DNA of 64,000 nucleotides, from positions 7,440 through 71,439 of the forward strand of contig JBDRQI010000003.1 of assembly GCA_043826355.1 (NCBI GenBank), read 5' to 3'. Positions 3,740 to 62,719 of the stretch are shown piece by piece. Numbering within the stretch: the first letter of the stretch is position 1; every line of letters begins with the position of its first letter. This DNA comes from Candidatus Omnitrophota bacterium (GTDB lineage: Bacteria > Ratteibacteria > UBA8468 > MWAK01). The position numbers were made by a program, and so were the translations under genes. The notes under the pieces were generated by a model. The model was not told where the DNA came from. It searched no databases and worked only from the letters and a program-made list of their open reading frames with translations.

Positions 3740-3780
3740 TGTAATTTACTGAAACGAGGACTATTTTTTTGCAACACTTC

Positions 3781-3912
3781 GCGTAATGTCAGCTGCAAAA
3801 CAAGCAATACGGAGGTTTGAGTATCCGGGGCTCGCCGGTTCTCCTGGCGAGAACACGGAGAGGCTCAAGCCGTAAGTTGCGTAGTTTTGTCTGATACGCA
3901 GAGTGTGTAGCA
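3781..3912 (+). ncRNA. Candidate structured RNA / repeat element, copy 1 (family shared with 46541-46740)
   Basis: Ends pair (UGUCAG..CAAAAC with GUUUUG..CUGAUA), internal hairpin CUCGCC/GGCGAG; homologous copy at 46.5 kb shows compensatory CUCACC/GGUGAG. Identity unknown. Confidence 0.3.
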
Positions 3913-3934
3913 AAAAAAACATCCGAGAGACCGA

Positions 3935-4423
3935 ATGATAGTGGCCGGATTTGACCCGGGACTGAACCGAACCGGTTTTGGAATTATCGAGAATTTAGCG
4001 CCGCTTTCGGTTCTGGGCTTCGGGGTAATTGCGCCCCGTGCCAGTAAAATTTTCGCGGAACGCTTATCCGAAATTTACGCCGGCGCCCGCCGGGTTCTGA
4101 AGGAGTATGCTCCGGACGTAATTGTGGTGGAAGAGATTTATTTTGCGAATAATCCCCAGACTACTCTTAAGATTGGGATTGTCCGGGGTCTTCTCTTTGC
4201 GGCGGCTCTGGAGCAAAAAATTGAAATCGCTTCCTTTTCGCCTGCGGAAGTAAAGATGGCGGTTGTCGGAAAAGGCAACGCCACCAAAGACCAGGTTGGT
4301 TTTCTGGTTGCCAGAATTTTGGGGATAAAAAAAGAAATTCCGGAAGACAGCGCAGACGCCCTGGCGGTTTCTCTTTGTTATCTCAGCCATCAAAAGTATA
4401 AGAGCAAATTATTGTTGGTGTAG
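3935..4423 (+). CDS. ruvC: Crossover junction endodeoxyribonuclease RuvC
   Basis: 162 aa, N-terminus MIVAGFDPGLNRTGFGII typical RuvC; followed by ruvA-ruvB. Confidence 0.9.
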   Translation: MIVAGFDPGLNRTGFGIIENLAPLSVLGFGVIAPRASKIFAERLSEIYAGARRVLKEYAPDVIVVEEIYFANNPQTTLKIGIVRGLLFAAALEQKIEIASFSPAEVKMAVVGKGNATKDQVGFLVARILGIKKEIPEDSADALAVSLCYLSHQKYKSKLLLV

Positions 4424-4504
4424 GGGAGGGGCTGTGCCCCTTCTCACAGTAGGACAGTCGTCTCGCTTGTCAAAACACGGGCGGGGATGTAACCCCGCCC
4501 CTAC
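4420..4504. repeat. GC-rich hairpin repeat element (GGGGAGGGG-type module plus second hairpin), upstream of ruvA
   Basis: gtaggggaggggctgtgcccc…cgggcggggatgtaaccccgcccctac; inverted termini GTAGGGG/CCCCTAC; related copy before leuC (61.26 kb) sharing tcgc(t/c)tgtcaaaa..cacggg and ending ctacaaa(a)atat immediately before the start codon. Confidence 0.55.
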
Positions 4505-5099: not shown

Positions 5100-5172
5100 T
5101 GCAACGGTGTCATTCCCGCAGACAGCAAGCGGGAATCCATTTTAGTAGGTTTGATGTCATAATTGATTCCCG

Positions 5173-6258: not shown

Positions 6259-6282
6259 GTAGTGCGACTCTGTCAGGGTCGC
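6259..6282. repeat. REP-like palindromic repeat GTAGTGCGAC(T/C)CT(T/G)TCAGGGTCGC
   Basis: One of >=5 copies (6259, 7743, 9310, 62630, variant 11610); forms hairpin GCGACCCT-TTC-AGGGTCGC; generates a spurious MRLCQGRP N-terminal extension on the downstream ORF. Confidence 0.6.
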
Positions 6283-7055: not shown

Positions 7056-7742
7056 GTGCATATTGGAATCATTATGGACGGGAACGGCCGCTGGGCTAAA
7101 AAGCGCGGCCGGCCGAGGATTTTTGGCCACAAAACCGGCGCGGACCGGATTGATGAAATCGTGCGCGCCTGTCCGGATTTAGGCGTCAAATATCTATCGC
7201 TTTACGCTTTTTCCACGGAGAACTGGAACCGGCCGGGAAAAGAAGTCGGTTTTTTGATTAAACTTTTCGCGGAAAAGATAAAGAAGAAAACGGCCGGGAT
7301 GAAGAAGGAAGGCGTCCGGGTTCTATTTTTAGGCGACCGGACCGCTTTTCCGGAAAACCTGCAGAGCTTGATGGCGTACTGTGAATCTGAAACCGCATCC
7401 GGCCGGAAAGTTAACGTGGCACTCTGCCTTAATTACGGAAGCCGGGATGAAATCGTAAGGGCGGCGCGCAGAATCAGCGAAGAGGTGCAGGCCGGAAAAC
7501 TGAAACCGTCACTGATTACCGAAAACCTCTTCAGCCAATATCTTGACACCCGGGAACTGCCGCCGCCGGATTTAATAATCCGCACCAGCGGAGAGTTGCG
7601 GTTATCCAACTTTTTCCTCTTTCAATCCGCCTACGCGGAGTTATATTTTACCCAAACCCTCTGGCCGGATTTCAGCACCGGGGAATTCGCTTCCGCGCTT
7701 GCTGAGTTAAAAAAACGGAAACGGCGTTTCGGAGACGTTTAG
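7056..7742 (+). CDS. uppS: Undecaprenyl diphosphate synthase
   Basis: HIGIIMDGNGRWA motif at N-terminus; 228 aa. Confidence 0.9.
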   Translation: MHIGIIMDGNGRWAKKRGRPRIFGHKTGADRIDEIVRACPDLGVKYLSLYAFSTENWNRPGKEVGFLIKLFAEKIKKKTAGMKKEGVRVLFLGDRTAFPENLQSLMAYCESETASGRKVNVALCLNYGSRDEIVRAARRISEEVQAGKLKPSLITENLFSQYLDTRELPPPDLIIRTSGELRLSNFFLFQSAYAELYFTQTLWPDFSTGEFASALAELKKRKRRFGDV

Positions 7743-7799
7743 TAGTGCGACCCTTTCAGGGTCGCCTGCAGGGGAGGGGTTCTGTCTCCTCCCGCACCT
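7743..7799. repeat. Composite repeat: REP-like module + GGGGAGGGG…CCTCCC hairpin module
   Basis: gtagtgcgaccctttcagggtcgc followed by ctgcaggggaggggttctgtctcctcccgc; creates spurious MRPFQGR… extension of dxr ORF. Confidence 0.6.
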
Positions 7800-9020: not shown

Positions 9021-10274
9021 ATGACCCCTTACCATTCTTTGCCGCTCCAAAACATCTTCTCTTTTCTCAAGGATAAAGAACCTTTTGCGCTTCTGGAGAC
9101 CACCCGCTGCGACCCCGAAAACTTTCTTTCCTATATTTTTTATGAGCCGGATGGCAAGATTGAAATCAGCAATTATTCGGACCTGCCCCGGTTTTTCAAC
9201 CAGATAGAATCCTTTTTACGAAAAGGCTATTACCTGGCCGGATTCTTTTCTTACGAAGCCGGCAATTTCCTTAATGTAGGGGAGGGGCTACGAACCCTCC
9301 CGCTTTTACGTAGTGCGACCCTTTCAGGGTTGTCGTCTTTGTCTTTTCCCCTGGCCCGTTTTTATCTCTTCCGGAAACCGCTGGTATTTGACCACCGGTC
9401 CGGTCTTTTTCCCGGCAATTTCCAACCCGGAGGTTCGGAATTTCCCGAAAATTACACCCTGGAAAAACCCCGGCTCAACACCGGTTTTACGGAATACCAG
9501 AAGAACGTCGGCCGCATCAGAGAATTAATAAAAGCCGGAGACACTTACCAGGTCAACTATACCCTGAAATGCAACTTTAATTTCTCCGGTTCGCCTTTCG
9601 GCCTTTACCAAGACCTGCGGGAAAAACAGACGGTCGCTTATTCTGCTTTCATCAAAAACCGCGACTTTTCCCTGCTCTCTTTCTCTCCGGAACTATTTTT
9701 CCGCAAGGCCGGCCGGAAGATTATGGTCCGGCCGATGAAAGGCACCATCAGCCGGGGAAAAAATACCTGTCGGAACAGACAGCAAATGCAAATTTTGAAA
9801 CAGAGTCCCAAAGAACGTTCCGAAAACGTAATGATTGTTGACCTTTTGCGCAATGATTTAGGCCGGGTCTCCGAGGTGGGTACGGTCCGGACCGATTCGC
9901 TCTTTGATATTGAAGAATATGAAACACTTTTCCAGATGACTTCCACCATCTCCGGCATCCTGAGAGAAAACCTCTCTTTTGGGGAGTTATTTGAAGCCGT
10001 CTTCCCTTCCGGTTCGGTTACCGGCGCACCCAAAATAAGGACGATGGATATCATCCGGGAACTGGAAAAAGAGGCACGCGCCGTCTATACCGGAGCCTTG
10101 GGGATTTTCTTCCCGAACCGTGACGCAGTCTTTAACGTGGCTATCCGCACCCTTCGTATTACCGGGGAAGAAGGTGAAATGGGGGTCGGAAGCGGAATCA
10201 CCTTTGATTCCGATGCCGGGCGGGAGTATGAAGAGTGCAAACTGAAAGCGCTCTTTCTGACCAAAAAAATGTAA
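9021..10274 (+). CDS. pabB: Chorismate-binding enzyme, aminodeoxychorismate synthase component I-like (PabB/TrpE family)
   Basis: C-terminal chorismate-binding motifs (…SGSVTGAPKIRTMDII…YTGALGIF…); 417 aa; contains an in-frame repeat-element insertion (see 9286-9335). Confidence 0.65.
   Translation: MTPYHSLPLQNIFSFLKDKEPFALLETTRCDPENFLSYIFYEPDGKIEISNYSDLPRFFNQIESFLRKGYYLAGFFSYEAGNFLNVGEGLRTLPLLRSATLSGLSSLSFPLARFYLFRKPLVFDHRSGLFPGNFQPGGSEFPENYTLEKPRLNTGFTEYQKNVGRIRELIKAGDTYQVNYTLKCNFNFSGSPFGLYQDLREKQTVAYSAFIKNRDFSLLSFSPELFFRKAGRKIMVRPMKGTISRGKNTCRNRQQMQILKQSPKERSENVMIVDLLRNDLGRVSEVGTVRTDSLFDIEEYETLFQMTSTISGILRENLSFGELFEAVFPSGSVTGAPKIRTMDIIRELEKEARAVYTGALGIFFPNRDAVFNVAIRTLRITGEEGEMGVGSGITFDSDAGREYEECKLKALFLTKKM
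9286..9335. repeat. Composite GC-hairpin repeat (GGGGAGGGG module + REP-like module) located in-frame inside pabB-like CDS
   Basis: gtaggggaggggctacgaaccctcccgc…gtagtgcgaccctttcagggttgtcg; same modules as intergenic copies; encodes …VGEGLRTLPLLRSATLSGLSS… without stop. Confidence 0.6.
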
Positions 10275-10545: not shown

Positions 10546-11619
10546 ATGACAGTTAACCTGATACATATCCTGGCGGTCGTCTTTATTTTTGGGGTATTAA
10601 TCATCTCCCACGAACTCGGTCATTTCTGGGCCGCCCGGAAATGCGGGGTGAGGGTGGAATTGTTTACTTTTGGCTTCGGACCGAAATTATTCGGTTTCAA
10701 ACGGGGAGACACCCTCTACCAGGTTGCCCTGATTCCGTTCGGCGGCGCGGTAAAATTGGCCGGGGAAGATGGTTACGGTAAAGAAGAACCGAAAGGCGAT
10801 GAATATTTTGCCAAACCGGCCGGAAAGCGCGCCCTGATTCTTATTATGGGTTCGCTGCATAACTTTATTCTGGGTTTCCTGGTCTTTGTGCTCGTCTTTA
10901 TCCTGGGGATACAGACGGTCAATTACCGGCAGCCGCTGGTGGGCGAAATACAACCCGGTTTTCCGGCTCAAAGCATTGGAATTAAAAGTGGGGATTTAAT
11001 CACCCGGGTCGCCGGCAAGAAGGTGACCGATTGGCTGACCCTGTCCAAAGAAATTCACCGGTACCCGGGTCAGGAAATTAACCTGGAGGTTCTTCGGGAA
11101 AAAGAGGTCCTGAATTTCAAAGTTACCCCGAAGAGCGAAACGATTAAAACCGCGCAAGGAGAAGAGACTGTCGGTTTAATCGGTATTATACCGGCCGCAA
11201 CCAGGGAAAAGTTTGGTATTATCCCGGCGCTCGGCCGGGCCGGCAAAGAGACATTCCGGGTGGCCGGACTTATCTTCTACTACCTGGGAAAACTATTCAC
11301 CCGCGAACTTTCCACCCGGGAACTGGCCGGTCCGGTAGGCATTGCCCAGATGACCGGGCAGTTTGTGCAAACCGGTTGGAGCGGTTTTCTTTACTTTCTG
11401 GCGCTTTTAAGCGTGAACCTTTCCATCGTAAACCTGTTCCCTTTCCCGATGCTTGACGGCGGGCACGTTGCCGGCGTGCTGATCGAGCGCATCCGGAAAC
11501 GCAAGCCCAGCCGACGTTTCCTGGAAATCTCCCAAACGATCGGATTTGGCCTGATAATCCTCCTGGCGCTCTTCGTTACCTATAACGACATTTTAAGAAT
11601 TTTTAGCAAGCGACCCTGA
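10546..11619 (+). CDS. rseP: RIP metalloprotease RseP (site-2 protease)
   Basis: HELGHFWAAR zinc motif, PDZ region, C-terminal LDGG motif; 357 aa. Confidence 0.85.
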   Translation: MTVNLIHILAVVFIFGVLIISHELGHFWAARKCGVRVELFTFGFGPKLFGFKRGDTLYQVALIPFGGAVKLAGEDGYGKEEPKGDEYFAKPAGKRALILIMGSLHNFILGFLVFVLVFILGIQTVNYRQPLVGEIQPGFPAQSIGIKSGDLITRVAGKKVTDWLTLSKEIHRYPGQEINLEVLREKEVLNFKVTPKSETIKTAQGEETVGLIGIIPAATREKFGIIPALGRAGKETFRVAGLIFYYLGKLFTRELSTRELAGPVGIAQMTGQFVQTGWSGFLYFLALLSVNLSIVNLFPFPMLDGGHVAGVLIERIRKRKPSRRFLEISQTIGFGLIILLALFVTYNDILRIFSKRP

Positions 11620-11638
11620 AAAAGGGGTCAGACTACGC
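11610..11638. repeat. Variant REP-like palindrome (reverse orientation) overlapping rseP stop codon
   Basis: gcgaccctgaaaaaggggtcagactacgc resembles reverse complement of GTAGTGCGACCCTTTCAGGGTCGC. Confidence 0.4.
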
Positions 11639-11649
11639 AATCTTATCTG

Positions 11650-12762
11650 ATGACTCGCCGAAAGAAAACCTCTCGTCCGGTTCAGGTTGGTACCCTGGTC
11701 ATTGGCGGCGGCGCCCCTGTTTCCGTCCAGGGGATGACCAAGACGAAGACCGCAGACCTTAAAAAAACGCTGAATCAAATCATTTCCCTGAAAGATGCCG
11801 GCGCGGAGATTATCCGCCTGGCGATACGCGACCGGGAAGATTTAATTGCGCTTGAATCCCTTCGGAAAAAGACCGCGCTGCCCCTGGTGGCCGATATTCA
11901 TTTCCAAAGCGAACTGGCTTTAGCCGCCATCAAAGCCGGTGCGGACAAAATCCGGCTTAACCCCGGAAACATCAAAAACCCGGAAGAACTGAAGAAGATT
12001 ACCAGAGAAGCAAAAAAGAGAGAAGTTGCCATCAGGGTCGGGGTTAATTCCGGTTCTTTGAATTTTCCCCCTCATCATGCCTCTCCCCACAGGGGAGAGG
12101 GAAACAAATCAGTTCTTGCCTGCGCCATGGTTTCCGCAGCCAAAAACTACCTGAAAATTTTTGAAGCCGAAGATTTCCAAAATTTAATCTTTTCCCTTAA
12201 GTCGTCTTCGGTCCGAACTACCATCCTGGCAAACCGCATATTCAGCCGGCAATTCGATTATCCCCTGCACCTGGGAATTACCGAATCGGGCCGGGGTAAT
12301 ATAGCCCTGGTCAAAAGCGCAATCGGCATCGGCGCTCTCCTGGAAGAAGGAATCGGCGACACGATCCGGGTATCCCTGTCCGAATCTCCGGAAGAAGAAA
12401 TTAGGGCCGGACGTCAGATTCTTCAGGCGCTGGGATTGAGATATTTTTACCCGGAAATTATCTCCTGTCCAACCTGCGGTCGTTGCCGGGTTAATCTTTT
12501 TGGAATCTTGCGAAAAGTGGAGGCCGGACTCAAAGGGCTGCCCGGTTATCCCCGGGATTATGCGGGACTCAAGGTTGCGGTAATGGGCTGTGAGGTTAAT
12601 GGCCCGGGTGAAGCCGCAGCCGCCGATATCGGCATTGCCGCCGGCCGCAAAACCGGTCTTCTTTTTGCAAAAGGAAGGAAGGTTGCCAGAACCAGCGAAA
12701 GAGAACTACCGTCCATCCTTTTGAGGGAAATTCTCAAATTGCGAAGAATACGCGGCAAATGA
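11650..12762 (+). CDS. ispG: 4-hydroxy-3-methylbut-2-en-1-yl diphosphate synthase (GcpE)
   Basis: …DIHFQ…, HLGITESG, C-terminal CPTCGRC Fe-S motif; 370 aa. Contains perfect palindrome CCTCTCCCC-aca-GGGGAGAGG at ~12080-12100 inside the CDS. Confidence 0.9.
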   Translation: MTRRKKTSRPVQVGTLVIGGGAPVSVQGMTKTKTADLKKTLNQIISLKDAGAEIIRLAIRDREDLIALESLRKKTALPLVADIHFQSELALAAIKAGADKIRLNPGNIKNPEELKKITREAKKREVAIRVGVNSGSLNFPPHHASPHRGEGNKSVLACAMVSAAKNYLKIFEAEDFQNLIFSLKSSSVRTTILANRIFSRQFDYPLHLGITESGRGNIALVKSAIGIGALLEEGIGDTIRVSLSESPEEEIRAGRQILQALGLRYFYPEIISCPTCGRCRVNLFGILRKVEAGLKGLPGYPRDYAGLKVAVMGCEVNGPGEAAAADIGIAAGRKTGLLFAKGRKVARTSERELPSILLREILKLRRIRGK

Positions 12763-17761: not shown

Positions 17762-18214
17762 ATGTCGGTAAACATAAACCGCGTAATGCTGGCCGGTAAT
17801 TTAACCCGTGACCCGGAGATGCGTTTTACGCCTTCCGGTACCGCAGTTACCAACATAGGATTAGCCGTCAATAGAGAATATACAACCAAGGAAGGTGAGA
17901 AAAAAAAGGAAGTGGCGTTTGTCAGAATCGTTACCTGGGGCAGGCAAGCTCAAAGTTGCCAGGAACATCTCAAAAAAGGGAGCGCTATCCTGGTAGAGGG
18001 CAGACTGCAAAGCCGTTCCTGGGAAACAGCCGAAAAGGAAAAACGCAATACCCTGGAAGTAACCGCCGAAAGAGTTCATTTTTTAACTCGGTCAGACCGG
18101 TCAGGCTTTGCCGACCAGTCAAGCTTCGCCCAGACGAGCCGGCGAACTGAAGAGCAAACGATTGGAGAAGAAAACTTTGAATATGACGAACCAGAGGAAC
18201 AAAAAGAGGGGTAA
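17762..18214 (+). CDS. ssb: Single-stranded DNA-binding protein
   Basis: OB-fold N-terminus [29 protein letters not shown]…, acidic C-terminal tail (…[11 protein letters not shown]). Confidence 0.9.
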
Positions 18215-22420: not shown

Positions 22421-23119
22421 ATGCGCACCGCTAAAATAAACGAACTGTTTTTTTCCGTTCAAGGGGAAGGTATCTTTATCGGCTATCCCCAGGTATTTGT
22501 CCGGTTTGCCGGTTGTAACCTGTCCTGCCGGTATTGCGATTTGCCGGAAACTCTCCCGGTAAAAAAAATCACCGCCCCGAAACTCATCGACCGCATTTTA
22601 ACTATTACCAAGGAAAAAGGAAGCGTTCATTCCGTTTCGTTGACCGGAGGTGAACCATTACTGCAAGCCGATTTTTTAAACGGTTTCCTTCCGCGTTTAA
22701 AACGAAGGAAGCTTCCGGTATACCTGGAAACCAACGGAACCTTGCCGGAGGAACTTAAAAAAATTGGGAAACAGCTCAATTTTATTGCGATGGACCTGAA
22801 AATTCCGAGTGCAACCGAACAGGCGTCTTGCTGGTGCGTACACCGTCATTTCCTGGAGGAATGTCAGCGTTTTCCAAGTCAAATATTCGTCAAGGTTGTG
22901 GTGACAAGCAATACCGATTCCAGCGAAATAAATCATGCCGCAAAACTGGTGCGTAAAATTAACGCGAAGATACCCCTGATAATCCAACCGGCATTAGATC
23001 GAAACGGAGAACCGGAAGTAAGCGGTCAAAAATTAACGCATCTTTTTCAGGCGGCCTTTAAGATTTTGTCAACCACCCGTCTTATTCCGCCGGTCCACCG
23101 GTTCCTCCGCCTGCCCTGA
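22421..23119 (+). CDS. queE: 7-carboxy-7-deazaguanine synthase (radical SAM)
   Basis: …FFSVQGEGIFIGYPQVFVRFAGCNLSCRYCD… QueE radical-SAM signature. Confidence 0.85.
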   Translation: MRTAKINELFFSVQGEGIFIGYPQVFVRFAGCNLSCRYCDLPETLPVKKITAPKLIDRILTITKEKGSVHSVSLTGGEPLLQADFLNGFLPRLKRRKLPVYLETNGTLPEELKKIGKQLNFIAMDLKIPSATEQASCWCVHRHFLEECQRFPSQIFVKVVVTSNTDSSEINHAAKLVRKINAKIPLIIQPALDRNGEPEVSGQKLTHLFQAAFKILSTTRLIPPVHRFLRLP

Positions 23120-29132: not shown

Positions 29133-30188
29133 TCATTGCGCAGACGCGAAATTAGAGGATAAAACAAAATATTCTTTTAACTTTGACGCCTGAAGATTGT
29201 TGGAAATTCGAAGTTTCTGTTGCCGGCCGGAAATAAAGAAACGCCGCAAGTATTCAACCTCTTCGTAATCAACCCGGTAAGAAGTATCCATCAGACCACT
29301 GAGCGCCTGGCGTAAAATCTCGCGTTGCAGGGAAATGGGAAGAGATAAAAATTCCCGGCGGGGGATTTTATATCCCTCCGCTGCGTTTGTAGGGGCTCGA
29401 TTCATCGAGCCCGATGCGGGTCGCATGAATGCGACCCCTACATTATTAAAAAGACAGCGGGATTTTAAAAAATCAGCGGCCTGGCCGGAAATGTATTGGT
29501 AATCGGCGTTCAATATCTCGGCCATCCGAAAAAGGGCTCCCTTGATGTTGGGATTATACTCCGCAAGCAACGGCAATAGTTCCAGCCGGATACGGTTACG
29601 CTGAAATTTCTGGTCCAGGTTGGTCGCATCGCTGACAAACCGGTAATCTTTTTCCGCCAGAAATCCGGATATCTCAACCCGGCTTACAGAAAGCAGCGGC
29701 CGGATGAGATTGATTTTGGAACCGCTTGAAACAGGACGATAGGGTGTTATTCCGGAAAGACCCTGCAATCCTGTTCCGCGAATAAGGTGTAAAATAATTG
29801 TCTCGGCCTGGTCATCTAACTGGTGACCGGTCGCAATGGAATGACAGGAAAAATGGTCGGCGGTTTTTTTTAAAAAATCATAGCGCGCCTTCCGGGAAGC
29901 ATCCTCAGCCGCGCCCGGTTTCAAGGAACCTTTTCCGGCCAGAAACGGAACACGGTATTTGGCAGAGAGTTCCTTGCAGAAAACCGAATCATTTTCGGAA
30001 AACGGCCGGAGTCCATGGTCAAAATGCCCGGCAAAGAGACCGAATTTCAGGCGGGTTTGCCATACCCGCAAAAGATGGAAAAGACAGACTGAGTCCGGGC
30101 CCCCGGAAAACGCCAGGAGCACCCGATCCCCTTTTTTGACCAGGGAATGCTCGATAATATACGCTAAAACCTTATTTTGTATTTTCAT
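29133..30188 (-). CDS. tilS: tRNA(Ile)-lysidine synthetase
   Basis: PP-loop LLAFSGGPDSV, …GHQLDDQAET… motif; start inferred at MKIQNKVL abutting mutM stop; contains in-frame repeat insertion at 29389-29442. Confidence 0.8.
   Translation of the reverse strand: MKIQNKVLAYIIEHSLVKKGDRVLLAFSGGPDSVCLFHLLRVWQTRLKFGLFAGHFDHGLRPFSENDSVFCKELSAKYRVPFLAGKGSLKPGAAEDASRKARYDFLKKTADHFSCHSIATGHQLDDQAETIILHLIRGTGLQGLSGITPYRPVSSGSKINLIRPLLSVSRVEISGFLAEKDYRFVSDATNLDQKFQRNRIRLELLPLLAEYNPNIKGALFRMAEILNADYQYISGQAADFLKSRCLFNNVGVAFMRPASGSMNRAPTNAAEGYKIPRREFLSLPISLQREILRQALSGLMDTSYRVDYEEVEYLRRFFISGRQQKLRISNNLQASKLKEYFVLSSNFASAQ
29389..29442. repeat. 54-bp palindromic repeat element (GTAGGGG…two hairpins…CCCCTAC) inserted in-frame in tilS
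   Basis: gtaggggctcgattcatcgagcccgatgcgggtcgcatgaatgcgacccctac: hairpins GCTCGA-ttca-TCGAGC and GGGTCGCAT-gaa-TGCGACCC with inverted termini; translates to …VGVAFMRPASGSMNRAPT… in tilS frame. Confidence 0.6.
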
Positions 30189-30994
30189 ATCTGGCAGGAC
30201 GGGCAGAAATAGGTGGAACGGCTTCCGTCTTTTTGGACTCTGACCAGATTTCCGCAACATCGGCACGGCTGTCCTTTCCGCCGATAAACAAAAAGGCTGT
30301 TTTGGAATTTTCCGTAGCTGCCGTCCGGTTTCAGGTAATCCTGGATTGATGTCCCGCCTGCCTTGAGCGCTTCCTTAAGCGTTGATTTTATCGCCCGATA
30401 GAGTTTTTTTGTTTCGGCCGGCTGTAAAGCGGAGACCCTCCGGTCCGGATGAATGCCGGCCCGGAAAAGCGCCTCGGTCGCATAAATATTGCCCAGACCG
30501 GCTATTCTCTGCTGGTCAAGCAGAAACGTCTTGATACGACTGTTTTTCCCGAAGATGATCTGTTTCCAACATTCAAAGGTAAAATCGGGCGTCAAAGGTT
30601 CCGGACCTAAATTTAATTTTATTTCCGGGTCTTCACGGCGCAGGGTAAACCCGCCGAAACGCCGCAGGTCATGGTAATAAAGCCGGGACCCGTCCTGGAA
30701 CAAAAAAAGGACGTGATGGCGAATCTTGGGCTCCGATCCGGAAGAGTAGAGGAGTTGTCCGGAAAGTTTAAGGTGTACCTGAAGGTACAAGGACGGCTTG
30801 AGGTCAAAGATGAGGTATTTACCTCTGCGTCGGATATTACCAATTTCCCTGCCGATAATCTTTCGTTGAAAAAAAACCGGGGAAGTCTCTTTAATCAGTT
30901 TGGGAACCAGGATTTTTACTGCCTGAATTTTTTTACCGACTAAATCTTTAACCAATTGTCGGCGAATAGTCTCAACTTCCGGTAATTCCGGCAT
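30185..30994 (-). CDS. mutM: Formamidopyrimidine-DNA glycosylase
   Basis: Start MPELPEVE (catalytic Pro2/Glu3), C-terminal zinc finger CxxC…CxxC; ~269 aa from that start. Confidence 0.85.
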   Translation of the reverse strand: MPELPEVETIRRQLVKDLVGKKIQAVKILVPKLIKETSPVFFQRKIIGREIGNIRRRGKYLIFDLKPSLYLQVHLKLSGQLLYSSGSEPKIRHHVLFLFQDGSRLYYHDLRRFGGFTLRREDPEIKLNLGPEPLTPDFTFECWKQIIFGKNSRIKTFLLDQQRIAGLGNIYATEALFRAGIHPDRRVSALQPAETKKLYRAIKSTLKEALKAGGTSIQDYLKPDGSYGKFQNSLFVYRRKGQPCRCCGNLVRVQKDGSRSTYFCPSCQI

Positions 30995-46483: not shown

Positions 46484-46540
46484 TTGTGTAATATGTCGTT
46501 TTTCTTCAAGCTTGGGTGTCTGGTTCGTAAAACTTCACGG

Positions 46541-46740
46541 AGTGTCAGCTACAAAACAAGCAGGACGGAGAGGTGAGTATCCGGGGCTCACCTGTAATCT
46601 AGGTGAGAGCCCGGCCAGCAACTGACCCACTTCCGTCTCTTCGGCGTATGGCCGGGACAAGTGTTGTTCTCAACACGGAGAGGCTCGCCTCGCAGTTGCG
46701 CAGTTTTGTCTGACATGCAGGGCGTTTCACGGACCAGACA
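46541..46740 (+). ncRNA. Candidate structured RNA / repeat element, copy 2 (extended variant of 3781-3912) inside gspG-gspH spacer
   Basis: Shares 5' GUGUCAGCUACAAAACAAGCAGGACGGAG, central GAGUAUCCGGGGCUC and AACACGGAGAGGCUC, and 3' GUUGCGCAGUUUUGUCUGACAUGCAG with copy 1; ~70-nt extra internal arm. Confidence 0.3.
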
Positions 46741-46748
46741 CCCAAGTG

Positions 46749-61259: not shown

Positions 61260-61354
61260 AAAATGCACGGGAGGGGCTATGTCCGCCTCCCGCGGGCTGA
61301 GTTTCACCAAGTCCGCCTCTGGCGGGTGGGGATTTAAATCCCGCTTCTACAAAT
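61260..61354. repeat. GC-hairpin repeat element (GGGAGGGG…CCTCCC + two further hairpins) in leuA-leuC spacer
   Basis: gggaggggctatgtccgcctccc, ccgcctctggcgg, ggggatttaaatcccgc; homologous to 4420-4504 element; ends cttctacaaatATG. Confidence 0.55.
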
Positions 61355-62629: not shown

Positions 62630-62706
62630 GTAGTGCGACCCTTTCAGGGTCGCTTTGTTAGAACAGGCGTTTTGTATGTAAAAATGCAGGGGAGGGGCTA
62701 TGTCCC
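62630..62706. repeat. Composite repeat: REP-like module + GGGGAGGGG-ctatgt-CCCCTCCC hairpin in leuC-leuD spacer
   Basis: gtagtgcgaccctttcagggtcgc … aaaatgcaggggaggggctatgtcccctccc; creates spurious MRPFQGR… extension on leuD ORF. Confidence 0.6.
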
Positions 62707-62719
62707 CTCCCAAAAAATT

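Follow-up and report, generated by a model that had tools for sequence, protein, structure and literature searches.

In-frame GTAG-type palindromic repeats in housekeeping genes of an Omnitrophota bacterium and their variation at the same codons among relatives

We describe hairpin-forming repeats that lie in frame inside housekeeping genes of a Candidatus Omnitrophota bacterium, within a 64,000-nucleotide stretch of its DNA (GenBank assembly GCA_043826355.1, contig JBDRQI010000003.1, positions 7,440 to 71,439; G+C content 49%) that we call the window. Three genes are affected, namely a pabB-like gene, tilS, and ispG, and for all three the in-frame repeats claimed in an earlier note on this DNA are confirmed. 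The repeats in the pabB-like gene and in tilS are repetitive extragenic palindromic (REP) units of the GTAG type, occurring either singly or as the inverted doublets called REPINs (REP doublets forming hairpins), and the ispG repeat represents a separate palindrome family. We consider it likely that such GTAG REP and REPIN units were spread by REP-associated tyrosine transposases (RAYTs) and have been retained in tolerant protein loops by selection for the reading frame and against stop codons.

Repeat units inside three genes

The units found in the pabB-like gene and in tilS share a common plan, in which a GTAG head is followed after 0 to 2 nt by a GC-rich stem of 7 to 8 bp enclosing a loop of 3 to 8 nt (Table 1). 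The two units of the pabB-like gene, modules A and B, jointly encode residues 86-104 of the protein (VGEGLRTLPLLRSATLSGL). Both modules had been correctly placed within this gene, but the span first assigned to them (9286-9335) clips the GTAG head of module A, and the true span is 9276-9332. These copies are decaying, as the right arm of module A is shortened and the stem of module B carries a G-T pair. The tilS element is a doublet in which two perfect 8-bp hairpins, both with a GTAG head, stand inverted to each other, so that its termini read GTAGGGG...CCCCTAC. Termini and hairpins agree with the original description of a 54-bp element, except that the doublet ends at 29441 rather than 29442. 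It is read on the minus strand as VGVAFMRPASGSMNRAPT (codons 29388-29441), and as RNA it folds with a free energy of -33 kcal/mol (z = -7.35) and a closing stem of GUAGG/CCUAC.

The ispG repeat contains a perfect 9-3-9 inner palindrome of 21 nt at 12080-12100, CCTCTCCCC-ACA-GGGGAGAGG, that occurs once in the window (0.02 expected by chance). It had been grouped with the other repeats; its perfection and its location in the gene stand, whereas its membership does not. Because it has no GTAG head, it does not qualify as a GTAG REP and is assigned to a family distinct from modules A and B. This family has 21 copies among 15 loci of related genomes, where the palindrome sits at the center of a longer element with a nested structure, CCCCCTCACC-n4-CCTCTCCCC-n3-GGGGAGAGG-n4-GGTGAGGGGG. 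The possibility that it is a copy of module A was thus ruled out.

Insertions and same-site turnover among orthologues

Orthologous proteins differ in length exactly where the repeats are located, as the earlier note would predict. All genomes used for these comparisons are metagenome-assembled genomes (MAGs), whose taxonomic labels may be wrong. For the pabB-like protein, three orthologues with 58-63% identity (P0009-P0011) have 17 residues between the motifs SYE(A/T)G and PLARF, where the window protein has 28 and one relative has 44. Extra residues are present at the same (N/K)-V-G position in 8/8 orthologues of 75-80% identity, with the codons GTA GGG corresponding to the REP head. At least five different repeat-derived peptides occupy this site among the eight orthologues. 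They include, besides the window peptide, the products of REPIN doublets (VGAPFMAPAGRINATPT and VGGGFIRPAGRINATP), VGQASRLS derived from GTAGGACAGGCGTCTCGCCTGTC, and segments containing CPPKPW. The DNA of three related loci (L119, L120, and L122) confirms unit by unit that the site is occupied.

The tilS site behaves similarly. Close orthologues carry VGVAFMRPASGSMNRAPT, VGAPFMAPAGLINRTPT, VGEGLRPLP, VGAGLHPRP, or ISPPPLRGKMKVGG, and one orthologue with 77% identity (P0129) has an empty site. Compared with the IspG structures 3noy and 4mwa in the Protein Data Bank (PDB), the window protein has seven additional residues (21 nt) exactly at the palindrome, and two relatives have 21 and 36 residues more at the same spot, all of them built from palindromes.

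From these alignments, the repeat-bearing segments of all three genes are best read as insertions, and in no case was the same peptide seen in relatives that lack the repeat. Since different REP families are found at one and the same codon position in close relatives (75-83% identity), the host loops appear to be hot spots of turnover. Several independent assemblies also have these sites occupied. Where filled and empty sites could be compared (tilS and a queE-like gene discussed below), no target-site duplication was observed.

Host genes under purifying selection and predicted loop positions

Purifying selection acts on all three host genes. The ratio of nonsynonymous to synonymous substitution rates (dN/dS) relative to related genomes, with the inserts left out, is 0.17-0.19 for the pabB-like gene, 0.19-0.22 for tilS, and 0.16-0.20 for ispG. 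Given these low values and the intact reading frames, the interrupted genes read as functional. In addition, an independent Logan assembly encodes an identical PabB protein.

The inserted segments are predicted to be disordered loops. The AlphaFold model of TilS has a mean predicted local distance difference test (pLDDT) score of 89.8, and the sole internal stretch scoring below 50 comprises residues 250-269, which lie after the linker helix and before the first strand of the C-terminal domain. Likewise, the model of the PabB-like protein has a mean pLDDT of 87.8, with a main stretch below 50 at residues 89-105 and a short second one at residues 330-333. The long low-confidence stretches of both models therefore coincide with the REP-encoded residues. 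Alignments of the PabB-like protein with PDB entries for PabB begin downstream of the insert, at residue 108 or beyond, and the loop comparison for this protein is based on the orthologue alignment and the AlphaFold model.

Intergenic copies and anatomy of the repeats

The same modules also reside in intergenic spacers, as had been claimed. Outside the pabB-like gene, all module A- and B-type copies of the window are intergenic and are distributed over six spacers or upstream regions (ruvC-ruvA, ruvB-ABC ATPase, uppS-dxr, rseP-ispG, upstream of leuC, and leuC-leuD). Module B has four copies in the window with three or fewer mismatches (starting at 6259, 7742, 9310, and 62630), compared to zero expected from 100 shuffled sequences, and there are five module A-like units (at about 4419, 7767, 9275, 61264, and 62685). 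In total, the window holds about 13 units, nine of which lie between genes. At the orthologous position of the degenerate module B copy upstream of ispG, another element has inserted into the loop in L119. The units abut or define the 3' ends of genes, given that the stop codon of ruvC (4421-4423) is the TAG of a GTAG head and that the uppS stop codon (7740-7742) and the downstream REP overlap at the first base of the latter. An Rfam search of the whole window at gathering thresholds returned only a 5S rRNA and a tRNA, and the repeats had no match.

Searching a collection of genome contigs for the exact 23-mer of module B recovered more than 118 loci. Together with the window and four orthologue loci, these make up a sample of 884 kb that contains 571 GTAG-hairpin units, which belong to many stem families with a common GTAG head. 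Inverted pairs are frequent, as in the tilS doublet, the pair at 4420-4504, and related loci at which module B is followed by an inverted GTAGTGCGAGGCTTTCAGCCTCGC.

Table 1. Repeat units and host genes in the window.
Feature	Coordinates	Strand	Remarks
Module A, REP unit in pabB-like gene	9276..9301	+	GTAGGGGAGGGGCTACGAACCCTCCC; GTAG plus GGGAGGG stem, 8-nt loop; in frame; encodes VGEGLRTLP
Module B, REP unit in pabB-like gene	9310..9332	+	GTAGTGCGACCCTTTCAGGGTTG; GTAGTGCGACCCT-TTC-AGGGTTG; in frame; encodes RSATLSGL
tilS REPIN doublet, first unit	29389..29412	+	GTAGGGGCTCGATTCATCGAGCCC
tilS REPIN doublet, second (inverted) unit	29418..29441	-	GTAGGGGTCGCATTCATGCGACCC
ispG partial nested palindrome	12067..12100	+	outer left arm CCCCCTCA (12067-12074) plus inner palindrome; in frame; encodes ...ASPHRGE...
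Inverted REP pair, ruvC-ruvA spacer	4420..4504		4420-4443 (+), 4477-4504 (-)
Module B copy, ruvB-ABC ATPase spacer	6259..6282	+	3 mismatches
Module B and A-like unit, uppS-dxr spacer	7742..7793	+	module B 7742-7765; A-like unit 7767-7793 (GCAG head)
Degenerate inverted module B, rseP-ispG spacer	11610..11636	-	
A-like unit upstream of leuC	61264..61290	+	degenerate head GCAC
Module B and A-like unit, leuC-leuD spacer	62630..62711	+	module B 62630-62653; A-like unit 62685-62711
pabB-like host gene	9021..10274	+	aminodeoxychorismate synthase component I-like; Chorismate_bind domain, residues 157-409; insert, residues 86-104
tilS host gene	29133..30188	-	351 aa; PP-loop domain; insert, residues 249-266, at junction of linker helix and C-terminal domain; open reading frame 29133-30266, start as in NCBI protein at 30188
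ispG host gene (GcpE/IspG)	11650..12762	+	

A RAYT gene flanked by module B

A candidate mobilizing transposase, of the kind that the earlier note suggested seeking, is indeed encoded by relatives in association with module B. Locus L103 (JAPLMK010000117, from a sister Omnitrophota MAG) contains an open reading frame (ORF) of 155 amino acids that scores 107 bits on the NCBIfam model NF047646, "REP-associated tyrosine transposase" (cut-off 80), and that also matches Pfam Y1_Tnp. Inverted copies of module B bracket this ORF, the first no more than about 10 nt upstream of the start codon, the second overlapping the stop codon. The same MAG encodes the TilS orthologue that has an empty site. Homologues of the RAYT are found in L127, L128, and L129 (84, 63, and 56% identity), and their flanks carry the same type of REP. 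Because the RAYT genes in all four loci have module B-type flanks, this gene arrangement argues that module B is the cognate REP of a RAYT clade. Over the DNA of the window and the related loci, a scan for the HUH...Y..NP motif combined with tblastn identified one complete RAYT (L103) and one truncated copy (L071, a close relative).

Among the matches listed, the exact module B 23-mer is present in MAGs labeled Omnitrophota, Zixibacteria, Ignavibacteria, Terriglobales/Terriglobia, Planctomycetales, Phycisphaerales, and "Ratteibacteria," and RAYT homologues with identities as low as 56% keep a nearly identical flanking REP. This distribution across phyla reflects either horizontal spread or a very strong co-conservation of RAYT and REP, with contamination of MAGs as a further possibility.

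Other genes and the frame filter

In-frame repeats are not restricted to the three genes described above. Among 38 syntenic genes (9,892 aligned residues) compared between the window and four relatives, repeat-derived length differences of at least four residues, internal or C-terminal, were found in pabB, at two adjacent sites of ispG, in tilS, and, each in one relative, in IspD, at the C-terminus of LpxK, and at the C-terminus of IspG. The IspD of L123 has a 63-nt in-frame insert (21 aa; GTTGAGAACTACACTCGTCCCTGCC...) that resembles REP-adjacent sequence in L037, the LpxK C-terminus of L126 has been replaced by a REPIN carrying a nested element (VGAPFTCPPKPWRRRMATPT), and 12 residues have been added to the IspG C-terminus of L120 by a repeat, TGTCATACCCGCGGACTGTGTCCGCC..., related to one in the ruvA-ruvB spacer. 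The length differences that are not repeat-derived comprise 17 aa in a single-stranded DNA-binding protein (SSB) tail, 5 aa in Fpg, and 4-6 aa in pabB, the EF-G C-terminus, and two short ORFs. The SSB-tail difference is a nonpalindromic insertion of 17 residues in the window ORF 17762-18214 compared with L124, and it ranks among the few large indels of the syntenic block without a repeat origin; the orthologue in L120/L124 matches Pfam SSB.

Further examples come from other relatives. In L073, module B lies in frame at 4060-4083 (encoding RSATLSGSP) in a QueE-like radical-SAM gene, directly after the CxxxCxxC motif. The corresponding gene of the window (ORF 22421-23119) has ETLP at this place, at about 22500, and no REP. 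Nested palindromes of the ispG type are in frame in the genes of relatives for LeuRS, PolA (three copies), HypD, FolC, a GH38 mannosidase, and a PMT-like glycosyltransferase (L057, L076, L011/L040, L105, L072, and L118, from relatives JAHJUB, JBAZEZ, and CAZBFL), and the glycosyltransferase gene also carries module B together with module A in frame, twice.

GTAG units are nevertheless depleted from genes. We defined a long open frame as one of at least 600 nt with the unit at least 150 nt from each side. In loci that had been picked for carrying module B, such that the percentages describe biased samples, 24/179 units (13%) of this Omnitrophota clade and 0/98 units of Zixibacteria lie in long open frames (Fisher's test, p = 2e-5), compared with about 61% of random positions. 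Put differently, 155/179 clade units are outside long open frames, versus about 39% expected at random positions. This depletion suggests that REPs are strongly selected against in genes, while in this clade a sizeable minority survives inside them.

The earlier note saw a choice between strong selection for lengths of 3n and a dedicated insertion mechanism. Several observations indicate that a frame filter acting on random insertions suffices, without a special mechanism. The lengths of the units themselves (23-26 nt, or 53 nt in the case of the tilS doublet) are not divisible by three. The REP-bearing spacers of the window and its relatives differ in length by a multiple of three in 5/11 comparisons, and thus show no bias to 3n. 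Moreover, GTAG can be read in two of the three forward frames (GTA-G.. or.GT-AG.), the third producing a TAG stop. Selection may well be the only filter for frame, which is in keeping with the 13% versus about 61% occupancy of long open frames in the samples described above.

Proposed explanation and alternatives

The explanation that we favor builds on the family membership of the units, the association of module B with RAYT genes, the way orthologues differ in length, the finding that the host genes are under purifying selection, and the predicted position of the inserts in loops. The REP units would be nonautonomous elements spread in trans by a RAYT, which is a HUH/Y1 tyrosine transposase related to the TnpA proteins of IS200/IS605. 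By analogy with TnpA-REP of E. coli, this enzyme would bind the folded single-stranded REP and cut beside its GTAG motif, and the mobility of the units would thus be RAYT-driven. The majority of copies would land or survive in intergenic DNA, and a few would have arrived in surface loops of housekeeping enzymes. Those intragenic copies would be kept whose length is 3n, whose frame is free of stops, and whose extra 7-20 residues are tolerated as a disordered loop. A loop with a resident REP may then turn into a hot spot where families, singlets and doublets, and nested insertions vary at one codon. Such recurrence would most likely result from insertion of one REP next to another, or from recombination or conversion among REP copies. 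The ispG insert would represent a second, non-GTAG family of nested palindromes with the same behavior.

Several points weigh against this explanation. A HUH...Y..NP motif scan and tblastn with 60 RAYT homologues revealed no RAYT within the 64-kb window. Among the loci screened, module B was the only repeat for which a RAYT was found; the GTAGGGG-headed families (the tilS doublet and module A) and the family of the ispG palindrome yielded none. At tilS and the queE-like gene, filled and empty sites are related by replacement, with no clean insertion whose borders could be identified, and for this reason transposition cannot be distinguished there from recombination or conversion. The sampling bias noted above affects the counts in open frames. 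Finally, a second, uninterrupted copy of tilS, pabB, or ispG may be present elsewhere in the genome.

The replacement pattern is what would be anticipated if recombination, gene conversion, or template switching among dispersed palindromic copies, or replication slippage promoted by hairpins, were mainly responsible for the origin and turnover of the segments, with a transposase needed at most for seeding. Other features fit this alternative as well. The junction "AAT/AAG GTAGGGG" is constant and is followed by different stems in different relatives, L119 and L120 have two direct copies of the inner palindrome in ispG and the window looks as if a deletion had taken place between them, and some elements are nested in the loops of others. 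However, for a REP to enter an empty loop for the first time, sequence has to come from elsewhere, as is apparent on comparing the tilS gene of L125 with the others or the QueE-like gene of the window with that of L073, and the clade possesses RAYT genes with cognate REP flanks. We regard this alternative as rather unlikely to be the main route, although it is compatible with RAYT-mediated spread and does not exclude it.

It is improbable, in our estimation, that the inserts have been co-opted for a function, be it through the RNA (with an internal hairpin acting on mRNA stability, on pausing of translation, or on co-translational folding) or through the protein (as a new surface loop). The hairpins within coding sequence are largely intact, the pabB site is occupied in every close relative compared, and most close TilS orthologues carry an insert (P0129 being empty). 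Di Nocera et al. 2013 (PMC3733652) have also speculated on functional effects of REP-tagged proteins. However, the peptide at a given site is wholly different among relatives, one close TilS orthologue does without any, the segments are predicted to be disordered, the pabB copies of the window are decaying, and many unrelated proteins are affected. The notion that the segments are ancestral protein with a chance likeness to repeats, or that the ORFs are pseudogenes or MAG assembly artefacts, has only the MAG origin of the sequence in its favor and was rejected, as the segments are absent from orthologues, module B matches are exact or near-exact with none expected, dN/dS is 0.16-0.22, and the sites are occupied in independent assemblies, including the Logan assembly.

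A bolder proposal can be formulated, which we offer tentatively as possible though doubtful. Surface loops of essential enzymes could serve as heritable "landing pads" that are re-occupied by REP families because a RAYT inserts beside the resident GTAG hairpin (REP-into-REP homing), making palindromic repeats the main source of protein-length variation in this lineage, while in parallel the module B/RAYT pair spreads horizontally. Inheritance of REPIN-RAYT systems has been described as mostly vertical, and horizontal spread of this pair, if true, would contrast with that pattern.

REPs are extragenic by name, and their translated copies show that selfish hairpin DNA can lengthen conserved proteins without destroying them. 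For the TilS, PabB-like, and IspG loops, genomes of about 80-90% identity provide an unusually rich natural series, in which a loop may be empty, hold a singlet or a doublet, or carry nested elements. This series could be used to study target choice by REP/RAYT systems and to map insertion-tolerant loops of essential enzymes. It also serves as a warning for annotation, in that such segments of MAG proteins are repeat-derived.

Neighboring elements and genes

The window and its relatives harbor two additional repeats. A structured mobile element of about 175-190 nt occupies different spacers in each relative (window 3760-3935 and 46524-46746; L120 7835-8012; L119 14262-14452). One window copy ends just before the ruvC start, and the second contains a 64-nt insertion. 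The element lies upstream of uppS in L120 and upstream of alaS in L119, and is absent from these places in the window. RNAalifold analysis of three copies predicts a rod-like fold with 57 pairs, 19 of which show compensatory changes, and the element has no Rfam match. The other is a palindromic repeat, TGTCATTCCCGC...GCGGGAATCC, that fills the ruvA-ruvB spacer (window 5108-5138) and is absent from that spacer in L039. Copies of it are found in relatives at L026, L036, L086, L102, and L110.

Loci L120 and L124 belong to JBAZEZ010000002 ("Candidatus Ratteibacteria"), which shares synteny with at least 40 kb of the window at a nucleotide identity of 79-89%. On this basis, the two MAGs belong to the same clade, and either the "Omnitrophota" or the "Ratteibacteria" label is probably wrong. 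A 5S rRNA gene is located at 726-843 (92 bits), and no 23S rRNA match was obtained in the 725 nt upstream of it inside the window; the 5S rRNA gene may be unlinked from an rRNA operon.

Comparison with known systems

The repeats of the pabB-like gene and tilS have the defining features of GTAG REPs, namely a GTAG head joined to a palindrome, dispersed and mainly intergenic copies, and inverted dimers. Like known GTAG REP/REPIN-RAYT systems, they combine the GTAG head with a short GC stem-loop, comprise many stem families per genome, and lie mostly between genes near ORF ends. The further hallmark, a RAYT gene bracketed by its cognate REP, was found for module B only, and in relatives.

Di Nocera et al. 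2013 (PMC3733652) sort REPs into GTAG and CGTC super-families and link GTAG REPs to RAYTs. They also describe REPs "located inside genes," with the highest GTAG numbers in Opitutus terrae and with inserts that are mostly dimers encoding 20-30 residues. Our observations agree in that a minority of units or dimers is in frame inside known genes, encoding about 8-30 residues. They differ in the host, which here is an uncultivated Omnitrophota clade. The genes concerned in our data are tilS, the pabB-like gene, and ispG in the window and leuS, polA, hypD, folC, and a queE-like gene in relatives, whereas PMC3733652 stresses replication and repair genes but also lists DNA polymerase I and tRNA synthetases. 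Corneloup et al. 2021 (PMC8266576) report that TnpA-REP recognizes and processes folded single-stranded REP, analyze the role of the GTAG motif, and draw on work with E. coli, Stenotrophomonas, and Marinomonas. Going by that work, a RAYT would bind, cleave, and rejoin its cognate REP in single-stranded form.

The likeness to palindromic elements of Rickettsia (RPEs), which had been drawn earlier, is apt as an analogy, but the pabB-like and tilS units belong to the GTAG REP/REPIN class. A likeness to miniature transposable elements with inverted repeats (MITEs) had been drawn as well. RPEs have been portrayed as "protein-coding palindromes" (Ogata et al.; Claverie & Ogata, cited in PMC3733652) that are in frame in housekeeping genes that stay functional, are thought to be surface-located, and have coding as well as noncoding copies. 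As judged from reading frames, dN/dS, and predicted loops, the genes studied here appear to share the feature of in-frame insertion with retained function. The hosts of RPEs are obligate intracellular alphaproteobacteria, and RPE-1 units are longer, at about 100-150 bp. PMC3733652 treats rickettsial RPEs as the CGTC counterpart of intragenic GTAG REPs, places RPE-4 and RPE-6, which are short and intragenic, in the CGTC super-family, and gives no dedicated transposase as known for that super-family. By their size (23-26 nt, or 53 nt for the doublet) and their GTAG head, the units described here are unlike the rickettsial repeats so described (CGTC type, longer RPE-1; PMC3733652), and their likeness would be functional only, with no relation by description.

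MITEs are also small, nonautonomous, structured repeats that occasionally extend or interrupt ORFs. However, they measure 70-300 bp, have terminal inverted repeats of 15-30 bp, and are mobilized by transposases that recognize these repeats, according to PMC3733652. Single GTAG hairpins of 23-26 nt without target-site duplication do not conform to this definition.

A literature search on Omnitrophota together with palindromic repeats yielded no paper on in-gene repeats in this group. In-gene GTAG REPs and RPEs have already been described as rare occurrences (PMC3733652), and the elements reported here are not of a new kind. Turnover of different REP families in the same loop, as seen here, was not found described for GTAG REPs in the portions of PMC3733652 and PMC8266576 considered. 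What is new is this turnover at one site from close relative to close relative, together with the broad range of housekeeping genes affected.

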